Positions 9,191 through 24,877 of a stretch of DNA of 31,849 bases are shown one piece after another. Under the pieces are notes generated by a model. It saw only the letters and a list, made by a program, of their open reading frames with translations, was not told where the DNA came from and did no database searches. Where the stretch lies: assembly GCA_044870765.1 (NCBI GenBank), contig JBIOZG010000016.1, positions 1 to 31,849 on the forward strand, in the 5' to 3' direction. The translations under genes and the position numbers were made by a program. The DNA is from Nitrososphaeraceae archaeon. Lineage in GTDB: Archaea > Thermoproteota > Nitrososphaeria > Nitrososphaerales > Nitrososphaeraceae. Every line of letters starts with the position of its first letter. Position 1 is the first letter of the stretch.

Positions 9191-9952
9191 ATGGCAACTA
9201 TCAGCGATCTGTTTGGCATTTGGGGTAAATATCTGACAAAGGATAACAATGAATTCTATATGCCGTCAAATTTGACTAAAGATAAAGAGGAAAAAGGAGA
9301 ATACTCCCAAGATATTAATAGAATTCGTCACATCGGTGGCAAAGAGACATCATCAAACGATATGCACTTTCATAAGGAAATTCTAAATGTCGAAGCAACC
9401 GGTTATTTCAAAGTCATTAAAAATATGGATGATATCTCCGTAAAGCTGAGAGGCGGTCACCATTCAGATAAAGGTGAAGAATCTGCCCGATGCTATGTTT
9501 TTAGGCTCGGCGCTGAAGGCAAAGGAAAGAACTTTGCTAAAGAGTATCCTCACAAAAATGGTAAAGGATACTCTTGGCATACTCTTGCCGTTAAACCTCT
9601 GGGGTCCCTCCAAAATAAGTGGGTAGGAATCAAAGCAATCACTTGGAATGAAGGAAACGACAAAGTACACTGTGAGTGCTATCTTGACTTTGACGGTGTT
9701 AATGAACAAGGAAAGTTTGATCCTCAAACACAGAATTGGAAATTATGGTATGATGTAGTAGACGAAGATGGTAAGTTTGGAGAAGATAATAAGGATCACC
9801 AAACTAGAGCAGCTTGGACAGATCTTCAGAAAAACAGCTCTATTCAATTCAGGGTAGACGCACAAAATGGGAAGACCATGAAATATTCTTATGGTGGAAA
9901 TGATATTACGTTCCAAATGCTATCTGCACGTGAAATTAATATCCAAATTTAG
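9191..9952 (+). CDS. Hypothetical beta-rich protein, paralog B
   Basis: DLFG, VEATGYF, VKLRGGHH, CYVF, FAKEYPH, KWVGIKAITWN, WKLWYDVVDEDG, QFRVD, LSAREI. Start ATG 9191 chosen by alignment with paralog A. Confidence 0.8.
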   Translation: MATISDLFGIWGKYLTKDNNEFYMPSNLTKDKEEKGEYSQDINRIRHIGGKETSSNDMHFHKEILNVEATGYFKVIKNMDDISVKLRGGHHSDKGEESARCYVFRLGAEGKGKNFAKEYPHKNGKGYSWHTLAVKPLGSLQNKWVGIKAITWNEGNDKVHCECYLDFDGVNEQGKFDPQTQNWKLWYDVVDEDGKFGEDNKDHQTRAAWTDLQKNSSIQFRVDAQNGKTMKYSYGGNDITFQMLSAREINIQI

Positions 9953-10206
9953 ATGTCACGAATGAAAAAAGATTCCCAGTTACATAGACCTGTAACTTTA
10001 AAGGAGTACACCCAAATCAGCGCGGGTAAGAAGTGTTGTCGAATAGGTTGTTATAATATGAAAAGATTTCAATCATGCTCGAGTTGACGTAACTGTTAAT
10101 GTTCCATGTATGGAAAATATTTTATACATTAAGTTTATAAAATAAAATCTTATTTCAAAAATAGTAACGAAGATACTTAGGTCTTCGGCCGTCGGGGCGG
10201 ATCTGG

Positions 10207-10233
10207 TTTTTCAGATTAGTCAGAGTTAGAAAT
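10207..10233 (+). repeat. Copy 2 of a 27-bp dispersed direct repeat
   Basis: tttttcagattagtcagagttagaaat, 24/27 identical to 5193-5219. Confidence 0.6.
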
Positions 10234-10517
10234 TTCTAATTTCCTTATATAGAGAGATCTTTACTTACAAGAATTTAAAGATTTAATGTATATGATGGAC
10301 TTGAATAAAAGCCAACTCAAGTAATCAGAATCAAGATGCAAGGTCAAGTACGTTGATACTTATCACAGTATCAGAGTAACATAGGATATAATGCCATTGG
10401 TAAATTGCTCTTAAAGTTACAGATTTTGATTTAGAAAAAAAAAGCTTATCAGTTACCTCTCCCATCGCTATTTGATGAGTAAATTTGGTAAAATCCAGTA
10501 AAAGGAAAGTCAAAGAC

Positions 10518-10928
10518 ATGAAATTGTCACATTCTAAAGCTCATTCTCATTCTCATTCTTCCGGCCATTCTCACAATTCACATTCACACAATCACAGTAA
10601 TAAAAAGGACATTCTGGCTGATTCTTATAAAAAATTAAAGGCAGGCAGAGCAATAGTTGTAGGTCACTCACAACACGATATGGGTTCACACGATTCTATT
10701 CGCGAAGCAGAATACAAAGGGCATAAAATAACTATTCGCACCCATTATGATATTAGAGTGGATAACAGACCTCTTGGAGGACACGTATATGTAGGCAATG
10801 ATGGAAACGTATCTACACATGCAATGCCGGCTTACTCTTTTTCTTCAACTGTTGAACTAGTCAAGCAACTTATTGATTCTTTTCCAAGCCAATTCAGAAA
10901 GCGGGCCAGGAGAAGTAAAAGGAGGTAA
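10518..10928 (+). CDS. melC1: MelC1-like tyrosinase caddie / copper chaperone with His/Ser-rich N-terminus
   Basis: EAEYKGHKI...IRVD...HVYVGNDG...S..Y...S..E..KQLID resembles the Streptomyces caddie core (E.YKGR.I...VFVDG..LHVM.NADG..IS). It lies directly upstream of a tyrosinase. N-terminal tract HSKAHSHSHSSGHSHNSHSHNH; likely start ATG 10518. Confidence 0.7.
   Translation: MKLSHSKAHSHSHSSGHSHNSHSHNHSNKKDILADSYKKLKAGRAIVVGHSQHDMGSHDSIREAEYKGHKITIRTHYDIRVDNRPLGGHVYVGNDGNVSTHAMPAYSFSSTVELVKQLIDSFPSQFRKRARRSKRR
10919..10926 (+). promoter_or_regulatory. Shine-Dalgarno site for the tyrosinase gene
   Basis: AAGGAGGT ends 7 nt before the TTG start at 10934 and overlaps the caddie stop codon. Confidence 0.75.
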
Positions 10929-10933
10929 TTGAT

Positions 10934-11902
10934 TTGGCAGTTGTTAGACGAAATATACTAAGCAACTCTACTGTAAGAGACCAATACATCGAAGGAGTCA
11001 AGCTATTAAAGAATGATTTTCTGCGTCCTGACTGGCCAAATACTTACGACATTTTTGTTATATGGCATTTTCATTCTATGATGACCCAAACTCCGCCTAA
11101 TTCTGGCAGTGGTAGAAATGCAGCACACCGTGGTCCAGTATTCCTTCCATGGCACAGGTGGCTGCTAATTTTGCTTGAATACCATCTTCAACGCGTTTTG
11201 AATGATTCTAATTTCGGACTTCCTTACTGGAATTGGGCAGCAGATGGTGAGCTAACTCCATTCCAACAAAAAAAAGCTGCAATTTGGGCGAATAACTGTA
11301 TGGGTGGAAATGGTTCACCCGTTACAACAGGTCCATTTAGGGCAGGTCAATGGCAAATAAACATAGAACAGGGATTTGCTCCAGGTTCCATGGACCCGAC
11401 ATTGGTCTCAGTGCAAAGGCCATTACGACGAGCCCTAGGATCTGGTTTCCCTGCTAGGTTACCAACAAGGACAGAGGTACGAAACGCAGTTCGCAGGGGC
11501 GCCCCAAATGTAATATATGATTCGCCTCCATGGGACGTTAATTCTGCAGGGTTTCGAAATGAGCTAGAAGGATGGCCAGACGGACCCAGGAATCATAATC
11601 GAGTGCATGTATGGGTAGGTGGAGATATGGGACCTGCAACATCACCAAACGATCCAATCTTTTATCTGAATCATTGTAATGTTGACAGAATTTGGTCAGG
11701 ATGGCAACAGATTTTTCAAAATCCAAAATATGTTCCTAATTCTAGTGCTTCGGCAGCATTAAGACGACATCGTCTAAACGATCTTCTTTTCCCAATAACA
11801 GAAAGCGTAGCATTCGATCCTATTTATCAAGGTAGGGTTAGACCTTCTAATCTGCTTGATATATCATCGAGGTATACATACGATACATTTACGGATCTCT
11901 AG
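10934..11902 (+). CDS. melC2: Tyrosinase (type-3 dicopper oxidase), MelC2-like
   Basis: N-terminal VRRN. CuA: IWH, AAHRGPVFLPWHR, then LPYWNW. CuB: HNRVHVWVGGDM...SPNDPIFYLNHCNVDRIW..WQ. C-terminal YTYD. Confidence 0.93.
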   Translation: MAVVRRNILSNSTVRDQYIEGVKLLKNDFLRPDWPNTYDIFVIWHFHSMMTQTPPNSGSGRNAAHRGPVFLPWHRWLLILLEYHLQRVLNDSNFGLPYWNWAADGELTPFQQKKAAIWANNCMGGNGSPVTTGPFRAGQWQINIEQGFAPGSMDPTLVSVQRPLRRALGSGFPARLPTRTEVRNAVRRGAPNVIYDSPPWDVNSAGFRNELEGWPDGPRNHNRVHVWVGGDMGPATSPNDPIFYLNHCNVDRIWSGWQQIFQNPKYVPNSSASAALRRHRLNDLLFPITESVAFDPIYQGRVRPSNLLDISSRYTYDTFTDL

Positions 11903-12304
11903 TAACCTTATTTCAATCTGATGCTAACCGATAGAATCACTATTAATCGACAGGCAACATTTAATATATATTATAAATATCACGTGTCGTAAATAGTAAA
12001 TTCTGATGCATACTACTCAACAAATGGATTTAGTTTATCATGAATCATGAGTATTCTTGCATATTGCCTCGTTCAAAGTCCTATAGACATAAACAGAAAT
12101 ATATATCGTTAAGGTCATTACAAAGTAATAATGTGTGTTGAAATTAATGCATTAATAGTTTCGTGGTAAATGTTTAATATAAACTCTTACGGACGTTCCA
12201 ATAATGTTACCAACTAAGATATATCAAGTATGTTTTCTCATTATTTAAAATGACTTGCTTATCAGAGCCAGGAAATGGATCTTATAATACGTTTCCATCT
12301 AATA

Positions 12305-12320
12305 TTTTCGGCGCCGAAAA
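12305..12320. repeat. 16-bp perfect palindrome TTTTCGGCGCCGAAAA (copy 1)
   Basis: Read directly. Intergenic, between convergent genes; the same core occurs at 23000-23015. Confidence 0.85.
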
Positions 12321-12436
12321 ATTTGCAAAATAGTTTAGAAGTTCTTTCCTAATGAGTATTTGCTGATTTGTATCAATGTTAAATGTCCACATATCAGCTC
12401 TGATAAGACACAGACGCTAACCTTCTCTTTTTATTT

Positions 12437-12817
12437 TTATTTTTTCTCTTCATTACAGATTAAACATCTATCAGATTTACCCATATACCAGTGACCGAAC
12501 TTAACGCAGAAAGTACCATCTTTGAATATTATTCCCTTCTCGTTGTTCTTCCAAACATTATTGACTTTAATAGCCAATACGACAGCCCACATGCTCATAT
12601 CAATTCCATCTGCTATTGCAAAAATCCATTGAGCTGTTCTGGCTGCATAATAGACGTAAGCCGCTAATCCTGCAACAGCGAATATTGTAAGAAGTAGGCT
12701 GATATCTCTTGTTTTCCTTGTTCGCAATGTCAATATCACTTGAGGGAATGTAGAGCAAAGAACAAAGATTCCTCCTAGTGTTACTGCCAGTGTTATATCT
12801 GCTGGAATTAAATCCAT
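12437..12817 (-). CDS. SemiSWEET / PQ-loop family small transporter with C-terminal Cys/His motif
   Basis: STFPQVILTLRTRKTRDIS PQ-loop motif, three TM segments, tail CVKFGH...RCLIC. Confidence 0.8.
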   Translation of the reverse strand: MDLIPADITLAVTLGGIFVLCSTFPQVILTLRTRKTRDISLLLTIFAVAGLAAYVYYAARTAQWIFAIADGIDMSMWAVVLAIKVNNVWKNNEKGIIFKDGTFCVKFGHWYMGKSDRCLICNEEKK

Positions 12818-12950
12818 TTCATTCCGCGTTATCCGTATTCACTAATATTTTATGAATGTATATTATTGCACATTTCAAGCAATACGTCATTTTGCCAAGT
12901 TGAACTTCATGATAATCTGGTTGAATCTGTCCGCATATACGACATGTCAA

Positions 12951-13457
12951 TTATACGATAGCTTCTCCTTTATATGACCCCTTATCTTTTAGTCTCTCTA
13001 GTCTTTTCAGAACGAATTTAGCAGTATCACTTACTGCTTTGCTATCGACATATGTCAATCCTTCTAGCACTTTTTTCACATCAGAATCTTGAACTCGCAT
13101 CATGCCAAGAGCTTCTATAGCCTCATGTCTTGCAACGTCTGACTTGTCATGCACAGCACAATCAACCAAATTTGGAATCTTGTCACGCATGTTCCTCAAG
13201 CCAATCTGAAACGCCGCTTCATGTTTCACAATTCCGTTTTCTTCATTGTCTAAAACCCATACCATCAAGTCTTCTATTTCTGGTCGTAGTGAGTCATTTT
13301 TCTTATCATCAAGTATTTCACCTGATAACCATACAGCGTCCCACCTTCTTGACTCATCATTCTTTTCAGTCTTGATAATTTTTATGAGCTTGTTCAGTCG
13401 TGCTCTAGGTTTTAGTTTCCTAAAGTCGTATTCATCTAAGATAACGTTAGTACTCAT
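12951..13457 (-). CDS. HEAT-repeat protein with two His-Glu motifs, deoxyhypusine hydroxylase-like half protein
   Basis: IVKHEAAFQIG and VARHEAIEALG repeats; 168 aa. Confidence 0.7.
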   Translation of the reverse strand: MSTNVILDEYDFRKLKPRARLNKLIKIIKTEKNDESRRWDAVWLSGEILDDKKNDSLRPEIEDLMVWVLDNEENGIVKHEAAFQIGLRNMRDKIPNLVDCAVHDKSDVARHEAIEALGMMRVQDSDVKKVLEGLTYVDSKAVSDTAKFVLKRLERLKDKGSYKGEAIV

Positions 13458-13540
13458 TAAAGATTACAAGTTTTTGTCCTTTTTAATATTTTAGTATGTA
13501 TATAATAATCCTAGCACAAGATTATTTCTAAATAATAAAA

Positions 13541-14422
13541 TCAAGAATATTTTACTAAAATACGTGAGTATTTTTTGTATTTTCTCCTTTCCTTTATTAG
13601 GAGATCTATCTGCTCATGTAATCTATGTTTGTGTTGCATCAAGACCTCATAAATAATCCATTTGTCTTCTACGGTTTCTATTATAGCTGCCAATTTTTTT
13701 ATTAATAATTTTATAGAAATTATTATCTTGTCAAATATCTTGCATATATTATCATAGTCAGTCCTGTCGTTGAATTGGTATAAAAGATCTTCATCCAAAT
13801 TTTTGTTTGCTAAGCTTTTTACTAATTTACGTACCGTTCTTGAAGATAATTGTCGTTCTTTTACGATTTCTATTAAAATTGACTGTGTACGTTTATTTGC
13901 AATTGGTAGCAACTCTTCTCCGATAGAGACACTAAGTTCAGATTTAGAAAGTAAATCTATCATTTCTTTTGGCAACTCAGTTAATTTTATTCGTTTGCAT
14001 ATGTAGGAAGTACTTTTTGACAATTTTTCTGCAAGCTCTGAAACCCCTCCCCAACCAAATTCTCGAACATATTTTCTATATGCTAGACCCTCTTCTATCG
14101 GATTTAGGGTATTTCTCTGTACATTCTCTACAATTGAAGCCTCAAAAGCCTGTTTATCATCTAGCTTTACTAAATGACAAGTGATTTTTCTCCAACCTAA
14201 CATCTTACAAGCATTTAGTCTTCTGTTTCCAGCAACAACTTCATGTTTATTTGAACTGTTACTCCTAACTACAATTGGTTGCAACAAACCGATTTTACTT
14301 ATTGATTCAGCTAGTTCGTCAAGATTATTCAGAGCAGCGCGTAGCTGATTGGTTGATGTAGTAATATCTATAATGTCAAGTTCTTCTAAAGATAGATTCA
14401 GCTCGTTTTCATATTTATACAA
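13541..14422 (-). CDS. parB: ParB/Spo0J family protein (ParB-N domain plus HTH)
   Basis: LDELAESISKIGLLQPIVVR, VVAGNRRLNA, ENVQRNTLNPIEE, ELAEKLSKSTSYI. No adjacent parA in this window. Confidence 0.88.
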   Translation of the reverse strand: MYKYENELNLSLEELDIIDITTSTNQLRAALNNLDELAESISKIGLLQPIVVRSNSSNKHEVVAGNRRLNACKMLGWRKITCHLVKLDDKQAFEASIVENVQRNTLNPIEEGLAYRKYVREFGWGGVSELAEKLSKSTSYICKRIKLTELPKEMIDLLSKSELSVSIGEELLPIANKRTQSILIEIVKERQLSSRTVRKLVKSLANKNLDEDLLYQFNDRTDYDNICKIFDKIIISIKLLIKKLAAIIETVEDKWIIYEVLMQHKHRLHEQIDLLIKERRKYKKYSRILVKYS

Positions 14423-14855
14423 TCTTAGTAAATCTCCTTTTTGACCTGTGATAAGACAAACGTAATTGAAATATTCAATTGATCCTCATAATTATAACTT
14501 AGAATTTTTTTATCTAATGAAATATAGTCCAGATGGTGCTCAGCATCAGAAAATTTTCTAAAATTGATGTACAATTCATTGTTAAAACACATTTGTATAT
14601 ATAGTATTTTTGTCCATTTTTAAATAATGCTTATTCTCCAAATACTGATCACAGGATAAGTTCCTTTTTTTCTACATTTATCTTGGATATCTCTTATTGC
14701 CAAGTTCAACCACCAGGAGGCTATATTGAGATATTTTCATACCGAGAAAATATTCCCGTCAGTGCCTTTTTCTTCGTTTTAGCTATCTTCAGCTCGAGTT
14801 TTGTTGTTCAAGATCTTTTCTTGTTTGGATATTATAATATTACTGGGAATTATCC

Positions 14856-14872
14856 AAAAAGGTTATTTATAT
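14856..14872 (+). promoter_or_regulatory. Putative archaeal BRE/TATA upstream of the SLATT gene
   Basis: AAAAAGG followed by TTATTTATAT, about 20-28 bp before ATG 14891, supporting that start. Confidence 0.45.
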
Positions 14873-14890
14873 GATCCAGTTTTTTCATTA

Positions 14891-15931
14891 ATGGAGATGG
14901 GCATCTCGCCATCAAATGATAATAGTAAAGATCAAGATAAAGTCATTCTTAAACAAGCCTGGAGACTATTTAGCCAATATGATCTTAATGCTGGTCTGCA
15001 ACAATCATTATATAGAAAAATGCAATTTTATATTCTCTTGTTAGGTGTAATAGTTACAATCCTTGTATTGTCAGAAAGCTATTTCGATAAGAATATTTGG
15101 TTTGTTCCGTGGTTAAAAAATTTGATAATAATAATCCCTATAGCAATATCAACACTTGTTGCAATTTCAACATTTTTTAGATTTGGTAACAAATGGGTTA
15201 ATCTAAGAACTGCAGCAGAAACTTTAAAAAGTGAGATATATCAATTCCGAACGACAGTAGGAAAATACAGTCCAAAGTCGGTTTCTGATAATCAACCAAT
15301 TACGAAACCTGAAGATGTTTTGTTCAATCAAATACAAACAATTTCAAATCAGTTGATGGGAACAGAGGTGGCTCTTAGTTCACTAAGAAAATATGAGGGA
15401 CAAATCCCACCAAAGATGTTTGGGGCAGATAAGTCTCAGGATGATGGGTACAGTACTCTTACATCCGACAATTACGTCAATGCTCGATTAGAACCACAGA
15501 TAAGTTTCTATCAAAAAAGAACTAAAAAAATGTATAGAAATCTTATGGTTCTACAAATACTCATTCTCATAGGAGGAGGGGTGGGAACATTTATTGCGGC
15601 CATAGGTTTAGAATTGTGGGTAGCCCTAACTGCCACATTTGTATCCGTTTTTACAATCTACCTTCAATACAATCAGATTGAAAATACTTTGATAAAATAT
15701 AACCAATCGTTAAATGGTCTAAACAACATACAAGTATGGTGGGCGTCATTAACGGATAACGAAAGAAATGATATTAAAAATAGGGATAAACTAGTAAACG
15801 CGACCGAACAAATCCTTCTGATGGAACACCAGGTTTGGGTCCAGAATATGAAACAGGCTGTATCAAAGATTCACAAAATAGAAGAAGAAAAAACTAGTCA
15901 CAAAATAGAAGAAAAAACTAGTACTAAGTAG
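14891..15931 (+). CDS. Tandem SLATT-domain (DUF4231-like) membrane protein, candidate pore effector
   Basis: Two units of two TM helices plus a helical tail. Unit 1: KW.NLR.AAE.LK.EIY.FRT..G.Y. Unit 2: YV.ARL..QI.FY...LELWVAL...YNQ...L.NI..WW...LV..TE.IL..E...W. Start ATG 14891 or 14897 rather than TTG 14801. Confidence 0.8.
   Translation: MEMGISPSNDNSKDQDKVILKQAWRLFSQYDLNAGLQQSLYRKMQFYILLLGVIVTILVLSESYFDKNIWFVPWLKNLIIIIPIAISTLVAISTFFRFGNKWVNLRTAAETLKSEIYQFRTTVGKYSPKSVSDNQPITKPEDVLFNQIQTISNQLMGTEVALSSLRKYEGQIPPKMFGADKSQDDGYSTLTSDNYVNARLEPQISFYQKRTKKMYRNLMVLQILILIGGGVGTFIAAIGLELWVALTATFVSVFTIYLQYNQIENTLIKYNQSLNGLNNIQVWWASLTDNERNDIKNRDKLVNATEQILLMEHQVWVQNMKQAVSKIHKIEEEKTSHKIEEKTSTK
15871..15921 (+). 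repeat. Short tandem duplication in the 3' end of the SLATT gene (HKIEEEKTS/HKIEEKTS)
   Basis: tcacaaaatagaagaagaaaaaactag followed by tcacaaaatagaagaaaaaactag. Confidence 0.8.
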
Positions 15932-16112
15932 TTATTATCAATGATATTGACATCATATGTCGAACTTAATTGTTATTGTTTAGTGGCCAAGAAGGAATAA
16001 TCAACGCAAGGGATTGAGTCCATTAAGAATACTTGAGATACTTCAGAAGAATCTAGGTATAAATCTTCATTGGAACAGTTCCAGTCGGAGCTCTAGTAAA
16101 AAGAAGAACTGA

Positions 16113-16120
16113 TTTAATAA
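16113..16120 (+). promoter_or_regulatory. Putative TATA box of the DUF4071-type gene
   Basis: TTTAATAA 23-30 bp upstream of GTG 16143, preceded by a purine-rich tract. Confidence 0.45.
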
Positions 16121-16142
16121 GTACAATTAGCCTTGTATAGCA

Positions 16143-17489
16143 GTGAAACCTTTTTGTTTTGTAGCGATGCCATTTGGCAAGAAAGCTGCCATTGGAAATG
16201 TTACTGTAAATTTTGATTCGGTGTATGAATCCGTAATCTTACCTTCAGTGCTGAATGCTGGATTACAGCCTATACGAGCAGATGAGGAAAAAGTCGGAGG
16301 AATTATACATAAACCTATGTTCGAGCGTCTCATACTATGTGAGTATGCTATAGCAGATCTATCTACTGCTAATGCTAACGTATTCTATGAATTAGGAATA
16401 AGGCATGCAGTCCGTCCCTGGAGTACCATTCTTGTTTTTGCAGATGGATTGATGCAGAATCCATTTGATCTTGCTCCAATGCGAGCCATTCCGTATAAAC
16501 TGATGGGCAATGGGGAGCCAGAGAAAAATGACGTTGCTAAAAGTCTGTTAGTAGATCGTCTATTGGAGGCTCAGCGGATGAAAGCGAAGGACAGCCCAGT
16601 TTTCCAACTGGTTGAAGGTTTTCCAGATATACAACACATAAAGACTGACGTATTTCGCGATCGAGTTAGATACTCAGAAGAGTACAAAGAGAAATTACAA
16701 CAGGTACGAAAACAAGGATTCGAAGCATTTAGAAAGTTTGTTACTGATGAAGAGATTAAGAATCTGGAAGCTGGTGTCATAATAGATATCTTTCTTTCAT
16801 ATCGGGAACTGGCGAAAACAAGGGACGATTGGATACAAATGGTGGAATTTGTTAATAAAATGCCACCAGAGCTTGCCGTCACAGTAATGGTTCAAGAACA
16901 ACTAGGGCTAGCGCTCAATAGAGCTGGAAAAGGCGATGAAGCCGAAAGAGTGCTTGTCAGTCTCATAGATAAGCGTGGGCCGAGTAGTGAAACATATGGT
17001 ATTTTGGGACGAGTGTATAAAGATAGGTGGGAATCAGCATTAAAAAGCGGTAACAATTTCCGTGCAGAAGGCTACCTCGACAAAGCAATAGAGGCATATT
17101 TGAAAGGCTTCGAAGCTGATTGGCGAGATGCCTATCCTGGAATAAATTTGGTTACTCTAATGGAGATAAAGAATCCGCCTGATTCCAGAAGGCTTGAATT
17201 GATACCTGTAGTTAGGTACGCCTTTGAGCGCAAGATAGCATCCGGAAAGGCAGACTATTGGGACTATGGAACGAAGCTAGAGTTATCCATTATTTTAAAA
17301 GATGAAACAAATGGGCTGAAGGCTCTATCTGAAGCGCTTGCGTCTGCTAGAGCTTCGTGGGAACTAGAGACAACAGCTCGTAACTTGCGCTTGATAAGGG
17401 AAGCGCGTGAGAAACGGGGCGAAAATATTGAGTGGGCATATAAGGCTGAAGAAGAGTTACTTAAAGTGTCAAATGAGCTGAGACGATAG
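16143..17489 (+). CDS. DrHyd / nucleoside deoxyribosyltransferase-like domain plus TPR-like sensor domain (DUF4071 / MAP3K TRAF-binding type)
   Basis: CFVAMPFG, RADEE..GGIIHKPMFERL..CEYAIADLSTANANVFYELGIRHA; C-terminal LSYR, ALNR, SETYGILGRVYKD, Y.KGFEAD.RDAYPGIN, DYWD, WELETTARNL. Confidence 0.88.
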   Translation: MKPFCFVAMPFGKKAAIGNVTVNFDSVYESVILPSVLNAGLQPIRADEEKVGGIIHKPMFERLILCEYAIADLSTANANVFYELGIRHAVRPWSTILVFADGLMQNPFDLAPMRAIPYKLMGNGEPEKNDVAKSLLVDRLLEAQRMKAKDSPVFQLVEGFPDIQHIKTDVFRDRVRYSEEYKEKLQQVRKQGFEAFRKFVTDEEIKNLEAGVIIDIFLSYRELAKTRDDWIQMVEFVNKMPPELAVTVMVQEQLGLALNRAGKGDEAERVLVSLIDKRGPSSETYGILGRVYKDRWESALKSGNNFRAEGYLDKAIEAYLKGFEADWRDAYPGINLVTLMEIKNPPDSRRLELIPVVRYAFERKIASGKADYWDYGTKLELSIILKDETNGLKALSEALASARASWELETTARNLRLIREAREKRGENIEWAYKAEEELLKVSNELRR

Positions 17490-17636
17490 TGGAAGCCAAA
17501 ATCATTGACACCAACAGATAATTTAGTTCCTTTAATCTTAAAACACTTTAATCTTGGTGATTTACTGATATTAATCATAAATTTAATATAAAATTTTATA
17601 AGCTGTTCCGCGTTAAGTCAATCGAGAAAATATAAT

Positions 17637-19136
17637 TTGGATAAATCTTCTAAAATTGTTTTTATAAGTTATGCAAGAGAAGATGAGGAATCAGCAAAAA
17701 GACTTTATAAAGATCTGCAAAAACGTGGTTTAGAACCTTGGTTGGATAAGGAAGCTATTCTGCCAGGATACAATTGGAAATACTCTATCCACCAAGCCAT
17801 TAAAAAAAGTCGCTTTTTTATACCACTTATTTCTTCAACAACGCTCAAAAAAATAGGCTATATACAAGATGAGTTAAAATACGCGATAGAAGCATCTAAG
17901 CAATTTCCGGAAAAGGAAGTTTTTATGATTCCTGCTAGGCTGGATAATTGCGAAATGCCTTACGAAATATTAGAAGAAATTCAGTCTGTAGACTTATTTC
18001 CGGATTGGGGCAGTGGCATAAATCAAATATTCAAGACATTTAAAGAAAAAGGTATTGCTTTTGAAGAAGTTCTGCATGATGAAGACCCGTCTCAAATAAA
18101 AAAAGAAGATGAATGGCAAAGCGGTCTATCTGAAGAAGACTGGATCAATTTATTGACTTCAATACACAACAAAACATGTATTCCTTTTATTGGATCGGGA
18201 ATATTTTCAATTAATCAACATGATGCTAAATCATTAAAATCTATATGTAAGGAAATTATCAAAAAATGGAAAGAAAAAGATCGATATCCTCTAGAGGATC
18301 TGTATACCTTGTCTAGGGCAGATATACTAGAAGAGCCCAACCAATTGGCAAGATTAGCACAATTTTTGGAAATAGAGAAATCATTTAACGACAAATTGGC
18401 TTATCCAAAGAGTATGCTAAAAGACATACTTAGTGACATAGGAGTTTCTTCCCTACTCAAAGACAAGTCACCATATGACATTTTAGCTAGACTTGATTTG
18501 CCATTATACATGACCACGAACTATGACAAGTTCATGGAATTGGCCTTATCCAAAGATCGTTCTAAATCACCACAAAGTGAATTTTGTAGATGGAGTGATG
18601 AATTGGACAAGTACGCAAGAACTACTGGGAAACCTTCTGTGTTTAATAAAAAGGGATATGAGCCTACACCGGATAATCCATTGATATACCATATTCTTGG
18701 AGATATTGAAGCTCCCAAATCGATGGTACTCACTGAAAAAGAGTATCTTCAATTTATGGTAGAATTAAATAAAAATCATGATATTATTATACCCAGCAAA
18801 ATACGAAATAAATTACAAAAATCATCTTTACTCTTTTTAGGATATAAATTAGAAGATATAAATTTTCGCGCAATATTTCAGGGTCTCTTGAATTTTCTTG
18901 CTATTTTGTCTGCCGAGGAAAGAAAAATAAGTATTGCTGTTCAAAGTCCACCTACCATTTCCAACAAAGATCAATTGAAAATGCAAAAATATATTGACCA
19001 GTATATCTCAAATGTATTTCAAATACGTGTTTCCTGGAAAAATCTATCGGAATTCCTAATTGAGTTGGATAAACGTTGGCAGGATTTTACGAGTAAAATT
19101 GATACTAAAACAAGTTCGCCATTAGAGGGTAGATGA
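17637..19136 (+). CDS. TIR domain - SIR2-like (SIR2_2) domain fusion protein
   Basis: TIR: VFISYARED, PWLD...LPG.NW...I..AI, GYIQDEL, IPARLDNC. SIR2-like: CIPFIGSG, LYMTTNYD, YHILG, SMVLTE.EY, SLLFLGY.LED.NFR. Confidence 0.9.
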   Translation: MDKSSKIVFISYAREDEESAKRLYKDLQKRGLEPWLDKEAILPGYNWKYSIHQAIKKSRFFIPLISSTTLKKIGYIQDELKYAIEASKQFPEKEVFMIPARLDNCEMPYEILEEIQSVDLFPDWGSGINQIFKTFKEKGIAFEEVLHDEDPSQIKKEDEWQSGLSEEDWINLLTSIHNKTCIPFIGSGIFSINQHDAKSLKSICKEIIKKWKEKDRYPLEDLYTLSRADILEEPNQLARLAQFLEIEKSFNDKLAYPKSMLKDILSDIGVSSLLKDKSPYDILARLDLPLYMTTNYDKFMELALSKDRSKSPQSEFCRWSDELDKYARTTGKPSVFNKKGYEPTPDNPLIYHILGDIEAPKSMVLTEKEYLQFMVELNKNHDIIIPSKIRNKLQKSSLLFLGYKLEDINFRAIFQGLLNFLAILSAEERKISIAVQSPPTISNKDQLKMQKYIDQYISNVFQIRVSWKNLSEFLIELDKRWQDFTSKIDTKTSSPLEGR

Positions 19137-19140
19137 CATT

Positions 19141-21444
19141 TTGACTGACATGATTAAATTATCTTCTCCATTAGGAACAGAATCAAGCAGCAATGATAAT
19201 GATATTTCTAATCCCTATATTGGTCCGCGGGCATTCAGAAAAAATCCTAGCGATCAATCAAAGTTCTTTGGAAGAGATACTGAAAAAGACGAAATAATTT
19301 CTAGAATCATGTCCCACAAACTTACTCTGGTGTATGCTCAGTCTGGAGCTGGTAAAACATCAATATTTAATGCCGAAATTATTCCAGCTTTAGAAAGCGA
19401 GGGTTTTGATGTTTTACCCATGACTAGAGTTGCCATTACTCAGCTAAAACCCACCGATAACTCATACATATACAACGCTCTTCTCTACATTCGAGATACT
19501 GTAGAAGATGATCTCATTAGAAAAAAAATAGATTCTCAGTCATTATCTGAACTTTCTTTATTTGAGTTTTTGGACTACAATTTTCCCGTTAAAAGAAACA
19601 AAGATACGAATCCTACACCTCAGGTATTAATATTTGACCAATTGGAGGATTTGTTCATTCATTTTCCTAACAAATGGATAGGTCAACGGAAGGATTTCTT
19701 TGAACAAATTTCCGATTCATTGGATAATAATCCTTTACTCAGAGTGGTATTTATTATAAGAGAAGATTACCTGGCTCAATTGGATCCTTATAGAATCATT
19801 GTCCCTGAGAAACTAAGACCAAGCTTTAGGTTAGAAAAATTACGACGTGATGAAGCTACACTGGCAATAACAGGTCCTTTATTAGGTATACTTAAGAATC
19901 TTAGCCAGGAAGAAGCAGAAGGTATTAAATTAGAAGTTGATGAGCTGGTTAATGATCTTTTAAAAACATACCTGGAACTTCCAAACGGGGATCTACAACA
20001 ACTAGAAGGCGAGTTTGTAGAGCCAATACATCTTCAAGTGGTGTGTAGAAAGTGGTGGAATGAAAGAACACAAAAAGAAACTACTGAGAAAATCAAATTA
20101 AAACAAGAAGGTATATCAAACGTAGATAACGCCCTAGAAGAGTTTTATGATAAAGCCGTTGATGTTGCAAAAAATATCGGGAGTAGTGAGAAGAAGATTC
20201 GAAACTGGTGTGAAGAAAAATTAATTACACCTAGCGGGACAAGAAGTATCATTCACAGAAGTACTTCGTCAACTGAAGGAATGGATAACAAAGTAGTGGA
20301 CTCACTTGAAGGCCAATATCTAATAAGAAGGGAATGGAGATCTGGCTCACCATGGTATGAGCTGACTCATGATAGGCTGGTTAAACCAATCATAGACTCT
20401 AATAAAAAGTGGGAACTCCAAAATACAAAGTTCAGAAGATCTCTACTTAGGAAACGAGTAATTATACCAATTATTGTAGCTATCGTAATTGGAATTTCAC
20501 TAACTGCAATTGGCACACAAAATAAAGTGGAACAAAAAGATACGGTTATTCAAAGTCAAGAAATGGCTATTCAAAGTTTAGAACTCGTTAATCAAGGCTG
20601 GACGAGTTATAACTCAGGTGATAAGAAGGGAGCTTTGGAAAAATTTAACGATGCACTAGAATTAGATCCTAATAATGCAGATGCATCATTTGGTAAGGCA
20701 TTTGTACTTTATGATTTGCTTGATTTTACAGGAGCGGTATATTACTACCAAAAGGTATTGGCTATTAATCCAAACGATTCTGCTGCCTTGATGAACATAG
20801 GTATTGCTTTAGTTGACTTGGGACGCTATGAAGAAGCAATTACCTACTATGATAAAGCGTTGACCATAAATTCGGCAGACGCCAATACCTTGATTAACAA
20901 AGGTGTTGCTTTAGATAACCTGGGACGCTATGAAGAAGCAATTACCTACTATGATAAAGCGTTAGCAATAAATTCGACAGACGCCAATACCTTGTATAAC
21001 AAAGGTGTTGCTTTAGATAACCTGGGACGATATGAAGAAGCAATTGCCTCTTATGATAAAGCGTTAGCAATAAATTCGACAGATTTAGATGCTTTGATTA
21101 ATGAAGCTATAGATTTAGATGGCTTGGAACGATATGAAGAAGCAATTGCCTCCTATGATAAAGTCTTAGAGATAAATGGCAGTTATGTTGAAGATGCCTT
21201 GAATGGAAAAGCATTTGTTCTAGCGAAACTCGGTAAAAATGACGAGGCCTTAGTAAACATTGAAAAATCTCTCAAATCTGCGCCTAACGAATATTCCCTA
21301 TCTACTGCTGCCTTCATAATGTATAATCTTGGCAAATATGATGAGGCCAGAAATTATTATGAAAAGGCATTAAAGATAGATCCTAATTTAACAGATATAT
21401 TGAAAGAAATAGAGTTAAAGGCATTTAATTCAGTAATGAAGTAA
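19141..21444 (+). CDS. nSTAND1-type NTPase with TM segment and C-terminal TPR array
   Basis: NPYIGPRAF, FFGRD, Walker A AQSGAGKTS, Walker B VLIFDQLEDLF, IREDYL, LQVVC..WW, ELTHDRLV. TM VIIPIIVAIVIGISLTAIG, then about 8 TPRs (LGRYEEAI..YDKAL.I). Starts 4 nt after the TIR-SIR2 stop; ATG 19150 is an alternative start. Confidence 0.9.
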   Translation: MTDMIKLSSPLGTESSSNDNDISNPYIGPRAFRKNPSDQSKFFGRDTEKDEIISRIMSHKLTLVYAQSGAGKTSIFNAEIIPALESEGFDVLPMTRVAITQLKPTDNSYIYNALLYIRDTVEDDLIRKKIDSQSLSELSLFEFLDYNFPVKRNKDTNPTPQVLIFDQLEDLFIHFPNKWIGQRKDFFEQISDSLDNNPLLRVVFIIREDYLAQLDPYRIIVPEKLRPSFRLEKLRRDEATLAITGPLLGILKNLSQEEAEGIKLEVDELVNDLLKTYLELPNGDLQQLEGEFVEPIHLQVVCRKWWNERTQKETTEKIKLKQEGISNVDNALEEFYDKAVDVAKNIGSSEKKIRNWCEEKLITPSGTRSIIHRSTSSTEGMDNKVVDSLEGQYLIRREWRSGSPWYELTHDRLVKPIIDSNKKWELQNTKFRRSLLRKRVIIPIIVAIVIGISLTAIGTQNKVEQKDTVIQSQEMAIQSLELVNQGWTSYNSGDKKGALEKFNDALELDPNNADASFGKAFVLYDLLDFTGAVYYYQKVLAINPNDSAALMNIGIALVDLGRYEEAITYYDKALTINSADANTLINKGVALDNLGRYEEAITYYDKALAINSTDANTLYNKGVALDNLGRYEEAIASYDKALAINSTDLDALINEAIDLDGLERYEEAIASYDKVLEINGSYVEDALNGKAFVLAKLGKNDEALVNIEKSLKSAPNEYSLSTAAFIMYNLGKYDEARNYYEKALKIDPNLTDILKEIELKAFNSVMK
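20800..21170 (+). repeat. 102-bp (34-aa TPR) tandem repeat, about 3.5-4 near-identical copies
   Basis: The core g(g/a)acg(c/a)tatgaagaagcaatt(a/g)cct recurs at 20821, 20923, 21025 and 21127, an exact 102-bp period. Confidence 0.9.
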
Positions 21445-21521
21445 TTACAAGAAGCAGTTCTTAGGTAGTCTAGCCCGAAACGCATCTGTGATTTTATTTT
21501 TGAGTGAATAAAATATTAAGA

Positions 21522-22223
21522 CTAGATTGAAGTCTGTCTTATATTCCTTATACTTATGCTTCCAGTCTTTGTATTATTGACTCTGAACCACGTGTAACTT
21601 CTTTCCTTGAAAGAGGATTCATCAACCATGTAGTCTTCTAATCCTTTATATTCTTCTTCTACACACTTTACAAATCCCTTACCATCATTGAAGTCTATTT
21701 CCATCTTTGAAGAAATTGACTTTTTCTCTTCATTAGGTATGTCTGTCAACCTTACTTTGACCCATTTTCCTATATCAATATCTTTAGGCAAATCTGGCTC
21801 AGGTCCTCTGATATGTTCATTATGGAATTTTTCAACCTTGGATCCACATTTCTTTTTCTTTCTATCTATCATGTGGCTTATTCCACCAAATCTATTAGGA
21901 CCTTCTCCACCCTCTTGGTGTCGACTTTGTGTTTGACAAGTATGATTGTCTATTTTATCATCATCGAATCTCAACTCGTATTCTGTTACTGCCTTATAAT
22001 TAGCAGAATCTATGTAGAGGCGGCCATGTCCTCCATCTGCCTCAAGTTTGCCTACTCCCGAACCATCCAATATTAAGCGTGGGTCTCCGGAGGCGTGCAT
22101 TTCAAAGCCTTTCCCATTCACAAAAGGTTTTGGGAATCTATCGTCAAACGTCTTGACTGTCTTTGCAGTACCATCATTCCATTTTCCAATATCATTACTA
22201 TCGTATAGAACAGTTCCTGTCAT
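21522..22223 (-). CDS. Hypothetical beta-rich soluble protein, possible distant relative of paralogs A/B
   Basis: 233 aa; SRHQEGG, KVEKFHNEH, KWVKVRL, WFRVNN occur in similar order to the RGG.H, KE.PH, KWVG.K, QFR.D motifs. TTTATAA on the minus strand at 22244-22250. Confidence 0.75.
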   Translation of the reverse strand: MTGTVLYDSNDIGKWNDGTAKTVKTFDDRFPKPFVNGKGFEMHASGDPRLILDGSGVGKLEADGGHGRLYIDSANYKAVTEYELRFDDDKIDNHTCQTQSRHQEGGEGPNRFGGISHMIDRKKKKCGSKVEKFHNEHIRGPEPDLPKDIDIGKWVKVRLTDIPNEEKKSISSKMEIDFNDGKGFVKCVEEEYKGLEDYMVDESSFKERSYTWFRVNNTKTGSISIRNIRQTSI

Positions 22224-22352
22224 GCCTTGATATTGTCACTGTATTATAAAAATTTTTTTATGGTAAATTCAGACATTCCGCTCATCTTATGGCCATTTTA
22301 GCTTGTATCTTTGCACAAGATTTAATTAATTACATATATAGTATAAAATATC

Positions 22353-22913
22353 ATGCCCGTTACAATTAATATTATAATCCTCATTATCGGGACATTACTT
22401 TTAGTCTTAAATCCCATAATCTTGCAATCAATACATGTGAATGCCATAAAATTTGAACCTGTTGGATTTGACAAAATACCAAAAGCATTAATCAAATCAA
22501 ATAGTGCTGAGTACAAATTCGGAGCAGACTATTCGCTGGATTTTGGGGATGAAACCGTCATTATAAATGACACTAATGCTGAAAATGCTAAAAATATGAC
22601 GCTGCTTACAAACGAAACCCAATCTCTGCAAATTGAGTGTGATAGCAACGATATGTGTGGCACTAATCTAGCTCCAAATATGGTCAAAATTTATTTGGTC
22701 GACAGCACCATTCAAGATAAACAGATTACCGAAAATTCTATCCCAATTTTGGAACTGGGTAGTAACGACTGTGGTACAAAACCTCTAAAAGTTTGTGCAA
22801 ATTTTAATTTTTCTATGCCCCATGACATAATGAATCAAGACTATAAGATTGTAGTAGATATGTCATTTGATGAGGCGCAATGGATTTTTATCAATCCTGT
22901 TAAAATATTGTGA
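22353..22913 (+). CDS. Hypothetical secreted protein with four Cys
   Basis: 186 aa, N-terminal hydrophobic signal, beta-rich body. Confidence 0.7.
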   Translation: MPVTINIIILIIGTLLLVLNPIILQSIHVNAIKFEPVGFDKIPKALIKSNSAEYKFGADYSLDFGDETVIINDTNAENAKNMTLLTNETQSLQIECDSNDMCGTNLAPNMVKIYLVDSTIQDKQITENSIPILELGSNDCGTKPLKVCANFNFSMPHDIMNQDYKIVVDMSFDEAQWIFINPVKIL

Positions 22914-22996
22914 TAGTAATTGATGGTAAATAGGTACTAAATGCACCTCATTAGTTCTCACAATTAATTTCATAGCCATGGGGTGATTTAATACCG

Positions 22997-23018
22997 AATT
23001 TTTCGGCGCCGAAAAATT
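22997..23018. repeat. 22-bp perfect palindrome AATTTTTCGGCGCCGAAAAATT (copy 2)
   Basis: Read directly; intergenic, contains the same 16-bp core as 12305-12320. Confidence 0.85.
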
Positions 23019-23377
23019 ATGAATAACAAAGAGTAGTATAGTCTTCAAAAAACTAGTGAAAGTTTCTTGGCTACTTTTCCTTATTGTTTATTGTTTAAAA
23101 AATAATTAAATTCGTGAAATTAAATTATACTTATGATGAAGTAATATTTGTAGAAAATCTAGATCTTTAACTTCATCATCAAATATTGTGCCTAATAAAA
23201 ATTAAATGGACGTCTTCTTCAAAAGTGAAAGGTTAGGTTATTGATTCTATGTTGATACTAATTATTATGACTCTTTAAAGCTTAAAGCTAATTGCAATAT
23301 AATCAAAGATACTATGTACTTGTAGTAAAGAAACTTTATAGATGATTTAGTGGTTTATAAAAAACAGGTGTTCGTAC

Positions 23378-23998
23378 TTGTTGAATACAAATCGCTCTGG
23401 TTCGCGCACTTGGAACAAGAGAAGAGTATTGATTGTAATAGCAATATCTTTAGCATATGGCGCTTGGTTCAACGTCCTTGATTCCTTAGCATACTGTCCA
23501 AATCAAGTACAAAAGAGCTGTGATGAAAAATGCCAGCCAATATCTATTGGAAGTATGTTTGGAGGTGACTATATATATCAACCTTGGAACGTTATAGGGC
23601 ATTTAATTCCAGGATTGTTCCTGGCTTTGTGGACTCCAAAGAGGGTAGAATTATTTGTAGCAGGGGCATTAATCTCTTCGGTAGTAATGGATTCTCCACT
23701 CTGGGGAGTTCTAAGACTTGAGCACGGTTTACCATTATGGTATATGAATGAAACAGGTGAAAATTTTGTGAACACCTGCAATATAGGTGATTGGATTTTA
23801 TACTACTATCATCCTACAGGATCATATGCAGTATGGAATAATCCACTTGGAATTCCAAGTGCAGCAATTCTATTTTGGAGTATAATCGGTAGATTGCTTG
23901 GTGCCGGCTTACTAATATGGTGGCAAGCCAGACAAGAAAAAGATGGAAAAGAATTTTCGTTACCCACATTAGTACTAAATATAAGAAACTACCTTTAA
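23378..23998 (+). CDS. Hypothetical integral membrane protein
   Basis: 206 aa, about 4 TM segments, Trp/Cys-rich loops, intramembrane H and D residues (VIGHLIPG, VVMDSPLWG). Confidence 0.7.
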   Translation: MLNTNRSGSRTWNKRRVLIVIAISLAYGAWFNVLDSLAYCPNQVQKSCDEKCQPISIGSMFGGDYIYQPWNVIGHLIPGLFLALWTPKRVELFVAGALISSVVMDSPLWGVLRLEHGLPLWYMNETGENFVNTCNIGDWILYYYHPTGSYAVWNNPLGIPSAAILFWSIIGRLLGAGLLIWWQARQEKDGKEFSLPTLVLNIRNYL

Positions 23999-24277
23999 GA
24001 ATAAAATTAGAATGCAAATACTAGTTTTTTATATTTAATGGTAAAATTTTTTGATTTTGCCTATCATAAATTATGAAACCATATGTTTTATAATGCAAAA
24101 TTATTTGCTACCATACTTTATTTCATTTTAATTCTGTCCCGTTTTAAATGGTCTAAGAGTTCCTTTGCATGTTGGCACCAACGGACAAATTTGAAAGACA
24201 ATATTATAGTTTTAACCGTAAGTTTAAAAAATCATTCCCAGAAAAAGTCATTTATAGTAGGTTTACGGCTACTACAC

Positions 24278-24877
24278 ATGAAATATCTAATCAAAGGGAA
24301 AATAGTTGACTCTGAAGGTAAACCAATAAATAATATATTTATACAGGCCATGGACAGTGACCAAAAATTGTTTGAAGATTATAACGATGACATGTTAGAG
24401 TCTTCTATGACAAATCCAGATGGCTCATTTCAAATTAGTTTTGATGATTCAGCCTTTGCAGATAGCTGGGTTGAAAGGAAGCCTGATATTTATTTAATGC
24501 TTAGAAACGCAAGTGGACAGATAGTACATAGGACAGATACTATCAAGTTTGAGTCTGATGATAATAAGAGCGGAACTATCAACATACCAATGGATATTAC
24601 TCTTGATTCTTTAGAAAAGAAAACTGAACAAAAAAGTACAGATCTTTATTGGAATAACGATAGAATTTTAGCTGCATTTTCCTCTGTAGGAGACACAATT
24701 ACCTTAAACAATAGTGACTTTCAGAGAAATTTCAGACTTTTACTTAGTTCTATTAATGCTTGGCTAATCTATACCAATGAGGTTATTTGGGAAAAAATTC
24801 ACTACGATGGACCACAAGTTCCTCGTTACCCATTACAATCGCCCGGCCATAGTCATAAATTATCATGGGAGAAATGA
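24278..24877 (+). CDS. Hypothetical protein with N-terminal transthyretin / prealbumin-like beta-sandwich
   Basis: IKGKIVDSEGKP...IQAMDSD...DD.L....TNPDGSFQISF...E.KPDIY. ATG 24278 has TTTATA at 24251-24256. The stop overlaps the next start (ATGA at 24874-24877). Confidence 0.7.
   Translation: MKYLIKGKIVDSEGKPINNIFIQAMDSDQKLFEDYNDDMLESSMTNPDGSFQISFDDSAFADSWVERKPDIYLMLRNASGQIVHRTDTIKFESDDNKSGTINIPMDITLDSLEKKTEQKSTDLYWNNDRILAAFSSVGDTITLNNSDFQRNFRLLLSSINAWLIYTNEVIWEKIHYDGPQVPRYPLQSPGHSHKLSWEK

Follow-up and report, generated by a model that had tools for sequence, protein, structure and literature searches.

Do four adjacent archaeal genes, each built from domains associated with immunity and conflict, make up one system, or have two systems come to lie side by side? 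The question is raised by positions 14891-21444 of contig JBIOZG010000016.1 (assembly GCA_044870765.1) from a Nitrososphaeraceae archaeon. The contig is complete at 31.8 kb (31,849 nucleotides, nt), was analyzed as a whole and is called the window here; it belongs to a genome of 2.0 Mb with a completeness of 96.7%. A first-pass annotation made from the sequence alone had described the segment as a candidate immune or conflict system in a probable archaeon, with genes for a SLATT-SLATT protein (g1), a DrHyd-TPR protein (g2), a TIR-SIR2 protein (g3) and an nSTAND1-transmembrane-TPR protein (g4). The host is an archaeon, with family relatives named Nitrososphaeraceae, Nitrosocosmicus and Nitrosopolaris, and the segment holds four consecutive, intact plus-strand genes with defence-type domains, every one of which scores above its Pfam cut-off. 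The four-gene observation is real and well above chance. The annotation had also asked whether homologues co-occur elsewhere and whether the segment might be two adjacent two-gene modules. Neighbourhood comparison found recurring g3+g4 and g1+g2 pairs (pairs A and B below), and it is these pairs that the comparative data give as units of conservation. Our preferred description is a composite locus in which two conserved pairs recurrently occur together, tied to one another by the TIR domain and by nSTAND1-SLATT fusions.

Pair A was counted at loci with an nSTAND1 match over most of the nucleoside triphosphatase (NTPase) domain. At all 11 such loci outside the own genome (G109:C49, G220:C44, G223:C48, G220:C54, G098:C38, G098:C169, G220:C32, G119:C7, G105:C5, G078:C16 and G126:C477) a SIR2_2 gene on the same strand ends no more than 152 nt upstream of the nSTAND1 clade gene. 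Left out of this count were G098:C121, a partial match of 145 residues with no SIR2 match on its contig, and six fragments of under 110 residues, most of which contain stops. An N-terminal TIR domain is carried by 5 of the 11 SIR2 genes and by none of the other 6, and at 4 of the 11 loci a g2-like or SLATT gene lies within 8 kb. The SIR2-nSTAND1 order was also seen in the metagenome loci L085, L087 and L088 (36-50% identity); L086 is rearranged and L089 is too short to show it.

In pair B, a DrHyd-TPR-S protein adjoins SLATT in this locus and in L165, L164 and L004. In L165 the gene after a g2 homologue encodes SLATT-SLATT (61% and 42% identity), and in L164 a SLATT gene comes after a g2 paralogue. 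The g2-like protein of L004, which is extended by 200 residues at its C-terminus, precedes a small SLATT, while in L099 the g2 homologue and SLATT lie 4 kb apart. Of three plasmid loci examined, those of Agrobacterium and Rhizobium (51% identity to g2) have a DUF4231 gene directly downstream of the g2 homologue, and a TIR gene lies within 6 kb at all three. Across the seven loci that hold both g2 and SLATT, a TIR gene was found within approximately 5 kb every time. It encodes TIR-SIR2 in this locus, TIR-TPR and TIR-SIR2 in L164, TIR-SIR2 and TIR-NHL in L004, TIR-pentapeptide in L099 and a CAP12/Pycsar-type TIR directly upstream in L165; the Agrobacterium and Rhizobium plasmids have a TIR gene each.

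The two pairs are also linked to each other. All five family genomes with a full-length g2 homologue and the (TIR-)SIR2 clade (G000, G220, G223, G126 and G081) have both within 8 kb on one contig, and the gene order of L168, g2-like, SIR2, nSTAND1, is the order of this locus. Pair B components were found beside TIR-fused SIR2 in 5 of 7 loci versus 1 of 6 for TIR-less SIR2, a count of small size from related genomes which takes in this locus and G081 besides the 11 pair A loci. In two proteins 53-55% identical to g4 (P0237 and P0254) a DUF4231/SLATT domain follows directly after the nSTAND1 NTPase, with scores of 71.1 and 65.4 bits. Contigs of equal length (34632 for P0003, P0106 and P0228; 86986 for P0028 and P0237) hint that further sets may be co-located.

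The four genes are moreover set off from their surroundings as a variable cassette, the approximate extent of which (14617..21521, no strand assigned) was obtained from the divergence of metagenome contigs and from DNA comparison within the genus. Contigs of metagenome runs X5 and X6, with the same consensus, carry other sequence left of 14617, and contigs of X20 and X5 also differ left of 21521/21522; the boundaries at approximately 14617 and 21521 bracket exactly g1-g4. When 8000-27900 was searched against 39 other genomes of the genus, flanking DNA was matched at the ParB-like gene (13560-14449), 21505-22920 and 24234-27576, and the TPR repeats of g4 were also matched, with no DNA match to 14900-20780 in these 39 genomes. 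The genes g1, g2 and g4 were not found in the same 39 genomes, where g3 gave one weak TIR-only match. A wider scan covered 238 family genomes, own genome included; the tallies take in the unpublished genomes G151 and G020, and the conclusions are independent of both. Matches to g2 were obtained in 18 of the 238 (E <= 1e-3), to g3 in 31 (E <= 1e-5; for the most part pieces with TIR or SIR2 alone), to the g4 NTPase in 12 (E <= 1e-5) and to g1 in 8 (E <= 1e-3).

Soil and rhizosphere metagenomes of 16 studies carry the whole or part of the stretch, and in two DNA runs contigs lie over 30/30 and 27/30 of its bins. Two metagenome loci, L083 and L084, hold all four genes in the same order, g1-g3 being 91-99% identical to those studied here and free of frame breaks. 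Identities for g1, g2, g3 and g4 are 97%, 98%, 94% and 76% in L083, and 93%, 99%, 91% and 86% in L084; because g4 (75.5%) falls so far below g1 and g2 in L083, the sensor part of g4 is taken to change fastest. The order kept in L083 and L084, together with boundaries that enclose all four genes, suggests that the four are inherited as a unit, and both the absence from 39 same-genus genomes and the fast-diverging sensor of g4 would be in keeping with immune-like evolution. One soil RNA library yielded contigs 90-97% alike on all four genes, one of which crosses the g3/g4 junction (18965-19252). DNA may be present in this library and its contigs show no single transcript, so they give a weak hint of cassette expression; the 11/30 bins left uncovered in the RNA-library run X20 carry no information.

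With respect to the individual proteins, g1 (14891..15931, plus strand, 346 amino acids, aa) is a SLATT-SLATT membrane protein and predicted pore-forming effector. Pfam assigned DUF4231 (67.6 bits, cut-off 24.7) and SLATT_1 (69.3 bits, cut-off 26.3), the NCBIfam SLATT_1 model scored 122 bits versus a cut-off of 41, and a hydropathy scan placed hydrophobic helices in both halves, all of which makes g1 a member of the SLATT families. The ATG at 14891 given earlier as the start was borne out by comparison with L083; a longer open reading frame (ORF) from TTG 14801 was not supported, the upstream stretch being in another frame in that 97%-identical locus. L176 and L177 encode SLATT-SLATT proteins (43-44% identity to g1) that carry a fused SLOG (LSDAT_prok) domain and precede TIR-STAND genes, a further link between the two pairs. 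In L176 (5410-12905, plus strand) the proteins downstream of the SLOG-SLATT-SLATT gene were TIR-NACHT/nSTAND3-pentapeptide and TIR-NB-ARC-TPR.

The g2 product (16143..17489, plus strand) was assigned by Pfam, Protein Data Bank (PDB) and AlphaFold2/Foldseek comparison as a putative DrHyd (nucleoside 2-deoxyribosyltransferase-like) domain with a candidate Rcl/DNPH1-like N-glycosidase fold (residues 1-175) joined to a TPR-S region resembling the central regulatory region of ASK1 (176-448). Pfam scores were 157.5 bits for MAP3K_TRAF_bd and 95.4 bits for TPR-S. A profile of 12 N-domains searched against the PDB returned Rcl/DNPH1 as all of its top 11 matches (best E 0.006 over 63 residues), with NVFYELG of g2 aligned to VGYELG of Rcl/DNPH1. 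The glutamate of this motif, E83, noted earlier as a retained NDT-like residue, proved invariant in 29/29 and in 12/12 sequences. The C-terminal two thirds matched ASK1 (8qgy/5ulm) in a PDB sequence search at E 8e-10. An AlphaFold2 model with a predicted local distance difference test (pLDDT) score of 82.9 gave ASK1 8qgy as its top Foldseek match (E 1.9e-9, 456 alignment columns), and against 5ulm reached TM-scores of 0.45/0.53 at a root-mean-square deviation of 3.4 over 252 columns, which gives the C-domain an ASK1-like fold; the N-domain was modelled with medium to low confidence overall. Relatives of g2 among the matches listed were 61-98% identical. The g2-like proteins of L004 (5868-7847, minus strand) and L168 (2863-4818, minus strand), 652-659 aa long, share a conserved C-terminal extension of approximately 200 residues with FLFSGH...GGACGGDLLFAE-type motifs and no Pfam match; our impression is that it might be a further nucleotide-binding, SLOG/LOG-like domain.

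The g3 product (17637..19136, plus strand) joins a TIR domain (residues 1-140) to a SIR2_2 domain (approximately 160-499) and was designated, from Pfam, PDB profiles and conserved residues, as a predicted signal generator or effector that cleaves nicotinamide adenine dinucleotide (NAD+). Pfam scores were 88.8 bits for TIR_2 (residues 8-130) and 77.8 bits for SIR2_2 (residues 290-448), and the PDB profile matches were ThsA, KomC and TIR-APAZ. The TIR glutamate read earlier from YIQDEL is E79; at least 90% of 22 family members retain it, and its aligned counterpart in SPARTA TIR-APAZ chains is E77, presumably the catalytic residue there, so that by its sequence g3 has a TIR domain of the NAD+-cleaving (NADase) kind, with predicted activity. 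Within the TTNYD motif of SIR2, T293, N295 and D297 are invariant in 22/22. A connection between loss of the canonical SIR2 histidine, taken up below, and fusion to TIR was considered and rejected, since histidine is found in 26 of 61 members with TIR versus 9 of 16 without. At the C-terminus (g3 residues approximately 488-499) many members of the TIR-SIR2 family end in K-[ST]-C-[LS]-P-[LI]-x-G; the g3 tail, KTSSPLEGR, is without the cysteine. This tail may be a docking or modification motif.

The g4 product (19141..21444, plus strand) consists of an nSTAND1 NTPase, a single transmembrane (TM) helix and a TPR array. It measures 767 aa from TTG 19141, or 764 aa from ATG 19150 as in the database protein P0224. 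The nSTAND1 family (PF20703) was matched with 94 bits (cut-off 27.1; residues 25-414), along with TPR families. Of the Walker A motif, the lysine of which had been noted at the outset, G69, G71, K72 and S74 are invariant in 14/14, as are GAGKTS and the Walker B motif hhhhDQxE as a whole, placing g4 within nSTAND1. A hydropathy scan located the TM helix at residues 440-458 (20458..20514, plus strand), after FRRSLLRKR. One helix after a Lys/Arg-rich stretch directly behind the NTPase was found in 14 of the 15 nSTAND1 ORFs longer than 430 aa; the sole exception, L087, ends at that point, and 3 of the 15 are near-identical to each other. Beyond the helix lies a TPR array (this locus, L184 and L186) or a beta-propeller (L085, L088, L164, L166, L180 and L183), and the best 120 of the 631 database matches of the clade carry the same two kinds of sensor according to precomputed Pfam lists. 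With such a stretch before the helix, the variable domain of g4 is predicted by the positive-inside rule to be extracytoplasmic, and a conserved membrane anchor that would place a variable sensor domain outside the cell is the most unusual feature predicted for the locus. A repeat search found tandem 102-nt units (34-aa TPR) in the sensor region (20743..21150, plus strand), which share 83% and 74% identity with the first; nowhere do this locus and its 91-94% relatives diverge more than here.

Prediction of a complex between g3 (499 aa, 22-row alignment) and residues 1-440 of g4 (14-row alignment) gave an ipSAE of 0.00 in two runs, which is evidence neither way. A 336-aa protein, P0092, was the sole candidate for a SIR2-nSTAND1 fusion and was left unused; its SIR2_2 part runs into nSTAND1 at mid-profile (positions 116-217), and it looks like a deletion or assembly chimera. 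L166 (6338-7288) and L181 (12687-13637), paralogous loci of a single genus, each have an ORF of 317 aa directly after the nSTAND1 gene. It matches PsbP_2 weakly, below the cut-off, and may encode a third partner in this lineage.

How might the four products work together? From the domain identities, conserved catalytic residues, gene order, co-occurrence and fusions reported above we infer biochemical steps, a topology, a trigger and a defence role. The cassette would be a membrane-associated conflict system centred on NAD+ and nucleotides, most likely antiviral and of the abortive-infection type. As a receptor-like STAND ATPase with a cytoplasmic NTPase, one TM anchor and a fast-evolving TPR array turned outward, g4 would perceive the cue. 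It would then oligomerise in an ATP-dependent manner and activate the TIR-SIR2 protein of the gene just upstream, which would cleave NAD+, the TIR domain yielding a signal derived from ADP-ribose and the SIR2 domain depleting or binding NAD+. This signal would be received or processed by DrHyd-TPR-S (g2), which in turn would control SLATT-SLATT (g1), and g1 would permeabilise the membrane.

That both pairs build one such pathway of sensor, NADase or signal maker and pore is a proposition on which, from gene context and domain fusions, we stand evenly poised, though we rank it ahead of its rivals; a number of observations weigh against it. Many of them would suit two autonomous two-gene systems placed side by side in a variable defence island, a serious possibility although one towards which we do not lean: pair A would then be an nSTAND1 receptor with a (TIR-)SIR2 NADase effector that kills by NAD+ depletion, and pair B a TPR-S sensor with a DrHyd domain that makes or destroys a nucleotide and a SLATT pore effector. 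Thus at 7 of the 11 pair A loci the available sequence contains neither a g2-like nor a SLATT gene (two of these seven contigs measure just 3.9 and 8.4 kb), the TIR domain that would link the pairs is missing from 6 of the 11, and G066:C117 and two rhizobial plasmids hold pair B without SIR2 or nSTAND1. At one of six g2 loci (G225:C60) neither SLATT nor SIR2 lies nearby, so that, taken with the seven pair A loci, each pair can evidently exist alone. TPR-S also occurs with a caspase head, in a caspase-pentapeptide-TPR-S protein which adjoins a g2 homologue in L163 (10530-12890, minus strand), and a TPR-S protein with its own effector head fits g2 as a self-contained sensor-effector. The g2 family, predominantly bacterial, is very large (at least 7732 of 8000 scored candidates at E <= 1e-3), whereas the nSTAND1 clade is named, among the matches listed, only from Nitrososphaeraceae relatives. 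Since the gaps between g1, g2 and g3 measure 211 and 147 nt and hold AT-rich boxes, these genes need not be one operon and may have their own promoters each. Two separate systems would, however, leave several features to coincidence, namely the proximity of the pairs in all five family genomes with both, the existing nSTAND1-SLATT fusions, the TIR gene that accompanies pair B at all seven loci, the preference of pair B components for TIR-fused SIR2 (small in number and from related genomes) and the cassette boundaries that take in all four genes. Related genomes are non-independent samples, and defence genes also cluster in islands for other reasons.

The enzymatic steps of the single pathway meet further difficulties. 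The conserved catalytic loops of the g2 N-domain have little confidence in the model, with a pLDDT under 50 for residues 83-90, and in g3 the position aligned by HMMER to the catalytic histidine of ThsA-type and KomC SIR2 domains, the latter named by the title of its PDB entry as the mutant H146N, is Leu354; across 77 family members this position is His in 35, Leu in 26 and Asn in 11. With TTNYD kept but leucine at the canonical histidine, SIR2 catalysis in g3 is plausible but not secure. The leucine, and broken copies with stops in G119:C7, G105:C5 and G078:C16, could also mean that the cassette has lost part of its activity and is a remnant, in decay or domesticated, in which SIR2 serves as a non-catalytic NAD-binding or scaffolding module. 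We consider this very improbable: all four ORFs are intact at this locus, the other catalytic and nucleotide-binding residues are conserved, H352, two residues upstream of Leu354, is invariant in 22/22 and may replace the canonical histidine, and the 91-99% identical g1-g3 of L083 and L084 are free of frame breaks. A role other than antiviral defence was judged improbable, if not to that degree. Here the cassette would sense envelope stress or contact with kin or competitor cells and lead to dormancy or programmed death in surface-attached soil populations, which would agree with a g4 sensor predicted to lie outside the cell, with beta-propeller and TPR ectodomains that would suit surface ligands over intracellular phage proteins, and with a second receptor-like protein, TIR-TM-Big_9, encoded at 29010-29903. 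PMC7159879 and PMC8195603, in which nSTAND1 and related systems were defined, link these systems to multicellular or social prokaryotes. The patchy, cassette-like and lineage-specific distribution speaks rather for defence, as does the anti-phage role of the closest solved relatives of the enzymatic domains (ThsA, KomC and SPARTA TIR-APAZ), although viruses and other triggers are indistinguishable from present data.

Set against named defence systems, the locus fits none, as had been proposed: no PADLOC or NCBIfam model assigns it. PADLOC returned no match for g1, one weak match for g2, 12 domain-level matches for g3 (topped by a TIR model at 72.3 bits, with ThsA1 weak at 43.6 bits) and 6 weak matches for g4, and the Thoeris and retron-TIR models of NCBIfam remained far below their cut-offs (Thoeris type III ThcB4, 25.3 bits versus 220). 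The stated lack of cyclase and of Macro or SLOG domains also held, none occurring among the Pfam matches of the four proteins; when 20 other window ORFs were scanned as well, no cyclase, Macro, SLOG, HerA or Argonaute family was matched, and thus neither the CD-NTase nor the Pyc cyclase gene of CBASS or Pycsar was present in the scanned ORFs. With Thoeris the locus shares a TIR domain, a SIR2_2-type domain that matches ThsA chains 7uxt, 6lhx and 8bto, and TTNYD. It departs from Thoeris, which has a separate ThsB TIR and ThsA, in that g3 fuses TIR and SIR2 in one protein, has leucine at the aligned catalytic histidine of ThsA and has a STAND NTPase as obligate neighbour of its gene, while the SLOG or Macro sensor that defines ThsA was not found here.

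Bacterial NLR-like STAND defence proteins include SIR2-STAND and TIR-STAND forms. Like these and like Avs/AVAST, the locus couples a STAND NTPase and a C-terminal repeat sensor to an effector predicted to cleave NAD+, and sensor domains vary on a constant NTPase, as they do in Avs/AVAST. The effector is, as noted at the outset, not fused to the STAND protein: g3 is a separate upstream gene, unlike the single polypeptide of Avs/AVAST. In addition, the g4 NTPase belongs to the nSTAND1 clade, a TM helix stands between NTPase and sensor in the 14 of 15 ORFs described above, and no Avs model was among the 6 weak PADLOC matches of g4. To our knowledge, characterised bacterial NLR-like sensors are cytoplasmic. 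Among solved structures SPARTA TIR-APAZ matches the full-length g3 TIR best, with E79 on E77. This likeness concerns the TIR fold only; neither an APAZ domain nor an Argonaute partner is present here. The match of the g2 TPR region recalls the N-terminal half of animal ASK1/MAP3K5, which has a thioredoxin-binding domain and a TPR central regulatory region, but g2 is a stand-alone protein of 448 aa beside a SLATT gene, without kinase, PH and SAM parts. Where g2 has the glutamate of FYELG, ASK1 shows FYHLG in a weak, non-significant alignment.

Burroughs et al. in 2015 reportedly predicted, by comparative genomics, nucleotide-centred systems in which TIR, SLOG or DrHyd domains accompany SLATT. 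Here as well a SLATT gene lies near a TIR-class enzyme; g1, however, has no fused SLOG, its neighbour encodes a DrHyd-TPR-S protein, and the TIR domain forms one protein with SIR2, paired with an nSTAND1 anchored in the membrane. In PMC7159879 and PMC9503650, SLATT is a predicted two-helix TM pore that responds to nucleotide signals beside TIR-class enzymes. PMC7159879, PMC8195603 and PMC9503650 present DrHyd as a TIR-related effector or signal domain and nSTAND1 as a new STAND clade of conflict systems, and derive components of the ASK signalosome from bacterial conflict systems. The earlier suggestion of an undescribed system thus stands in part: no named system claims the locus, but its parts and the themes of TIR with SLATT, DrHyd and nSTAND1 have already been predicted as components of conflict systems in these sources. 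The locus varies known kinds, that is NLR-like STAND sensors, TIR/SIR2 NADases and SLATT pores, and is not a new category. A literature search found no paper on TIR-SIR2 and, judged from titles and the beginnings of abstracts, no functional study of the DUF4071/TRAFs-binding plus DUF4231 pair. The gene pairings, that of DrHyd-TPR-S with SLATT included, may already be tabulated in the 2015 comparative-genomics work, which defined SLATT and DrHyd, or in its supplements.

If the single pathway is true, a STAND sensor would be membrane-anchored with its variable domain outside the cell, and a natural TIR-SIR2 fusion would unite a Thoeris-like signal maker with a NADase on a single polypeptide controlled by the STAND protein. 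A further defence architecture would be added for ammonia-oxidising archaea of soil, in which immunity has received little study. A testable function would also be given to DUF4071 (TRAFs-binding), a very large family that corresponds in prokaryotes to the regulatory region of ASK1 and keeps the catalytic glutamate that was not seen in the weak ASK1 alignment. A bolder version, which we offer tentatively and regard as rather unlikely, holds that Nitrososphaeraceae use a large family of TM NLR-like receptors, built from a cytoplasmic nSTAND1 ATPase, one TM helix and a beta-propeller or TPR ectodomain exposed at the surface, to sense outside events such as virus contact or envelope damage. These receptors would activate TIR-SIR2 inside the cell, and its NAD+-derived product would pass by way of DrHyd-TPR-S, as an enzymatically active, ancestor-like relative of the ASK1 N-terminal module, to a SLATT pore. 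It would amount to a prokaryotic outside-in immune pathway with Toll-receptor-like logic and to a working example of the conflict-system context behind the ASK signalosome module.

The start of g4 lies 4 nt past the g3 stop, while the g1/g2 (211 nt) and g2/g3 (147 nt) gaps are AT-rich with a TATA-like box in each. The boxes reported earlier ahead of g1, g2 and g3 are present as sequence, in DNA of 35% guanine plus cytosine (GC), and are candidate boxes. The one before g1, TTATTTATAT (14863..14872, plus strand), was read from the sequence 19-28 nt before the ATG, a position that would fit a leaderless archaeal transcript. Base composition did not mark the cassette as an outlier (GC 0.33-0.41 versus 0.31-0.42 for the window), a repeat search found no flanking direct or inverted repeats beyond chance-size matches, and no tRNA genes as integration targets were found within the 31.8-kb window.

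At the left boundary, in the intergenic region before g1 (approximately 14607-14665), a stretch of approximately 55 nt recurs at 78-89% identity in about a dozen genomes of the genus, and the genome studied here has it on a further contig (G000:C44). Candidate identities for this stretch are a recombination site, a small mobile repeat and a regulatory element. Another short repeat, of approximately 75-95 nt (approximately 10179-10275), is found at up to 89% identity in many same-genus genomes, with two copies on G000:C4. Directly upstream of the cassette lies a gene for a ParB_N + HTH_ParB protein (13541-14422, minus strand), the DNA of which matches several contigs per genome in the genus and so belongs to a multi-copy family. 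Thaumarchaeal integrative-conjugative elements with ParB-like genes are reported in PMC6563490, which in its accessible portion does not treat the four genes studied here; general Pfam scans of the window ORFs turned up neither a TFIIB gene nor an integrase. The flanking cargo at 10934-11902 and 24865-27576 is metabolic (tyrosinase, GMC oxidoreductase, SnoaL-like cyclase, dioxygenase and MFS transporter), and the cassette therefore lies outside any obvious large defence island on the contig. The second receptor-like protein of the window, TIR-TM-Big_9 (29010-29903, plus strand, 297 aa), has an N-terminal TIR_2 domain (68.8 bits), a PSVQPVKEK-like repeat linker, one hydrophobic helix after KEKRSKPTK and then a Big_9/cadherin-like Ig domain.

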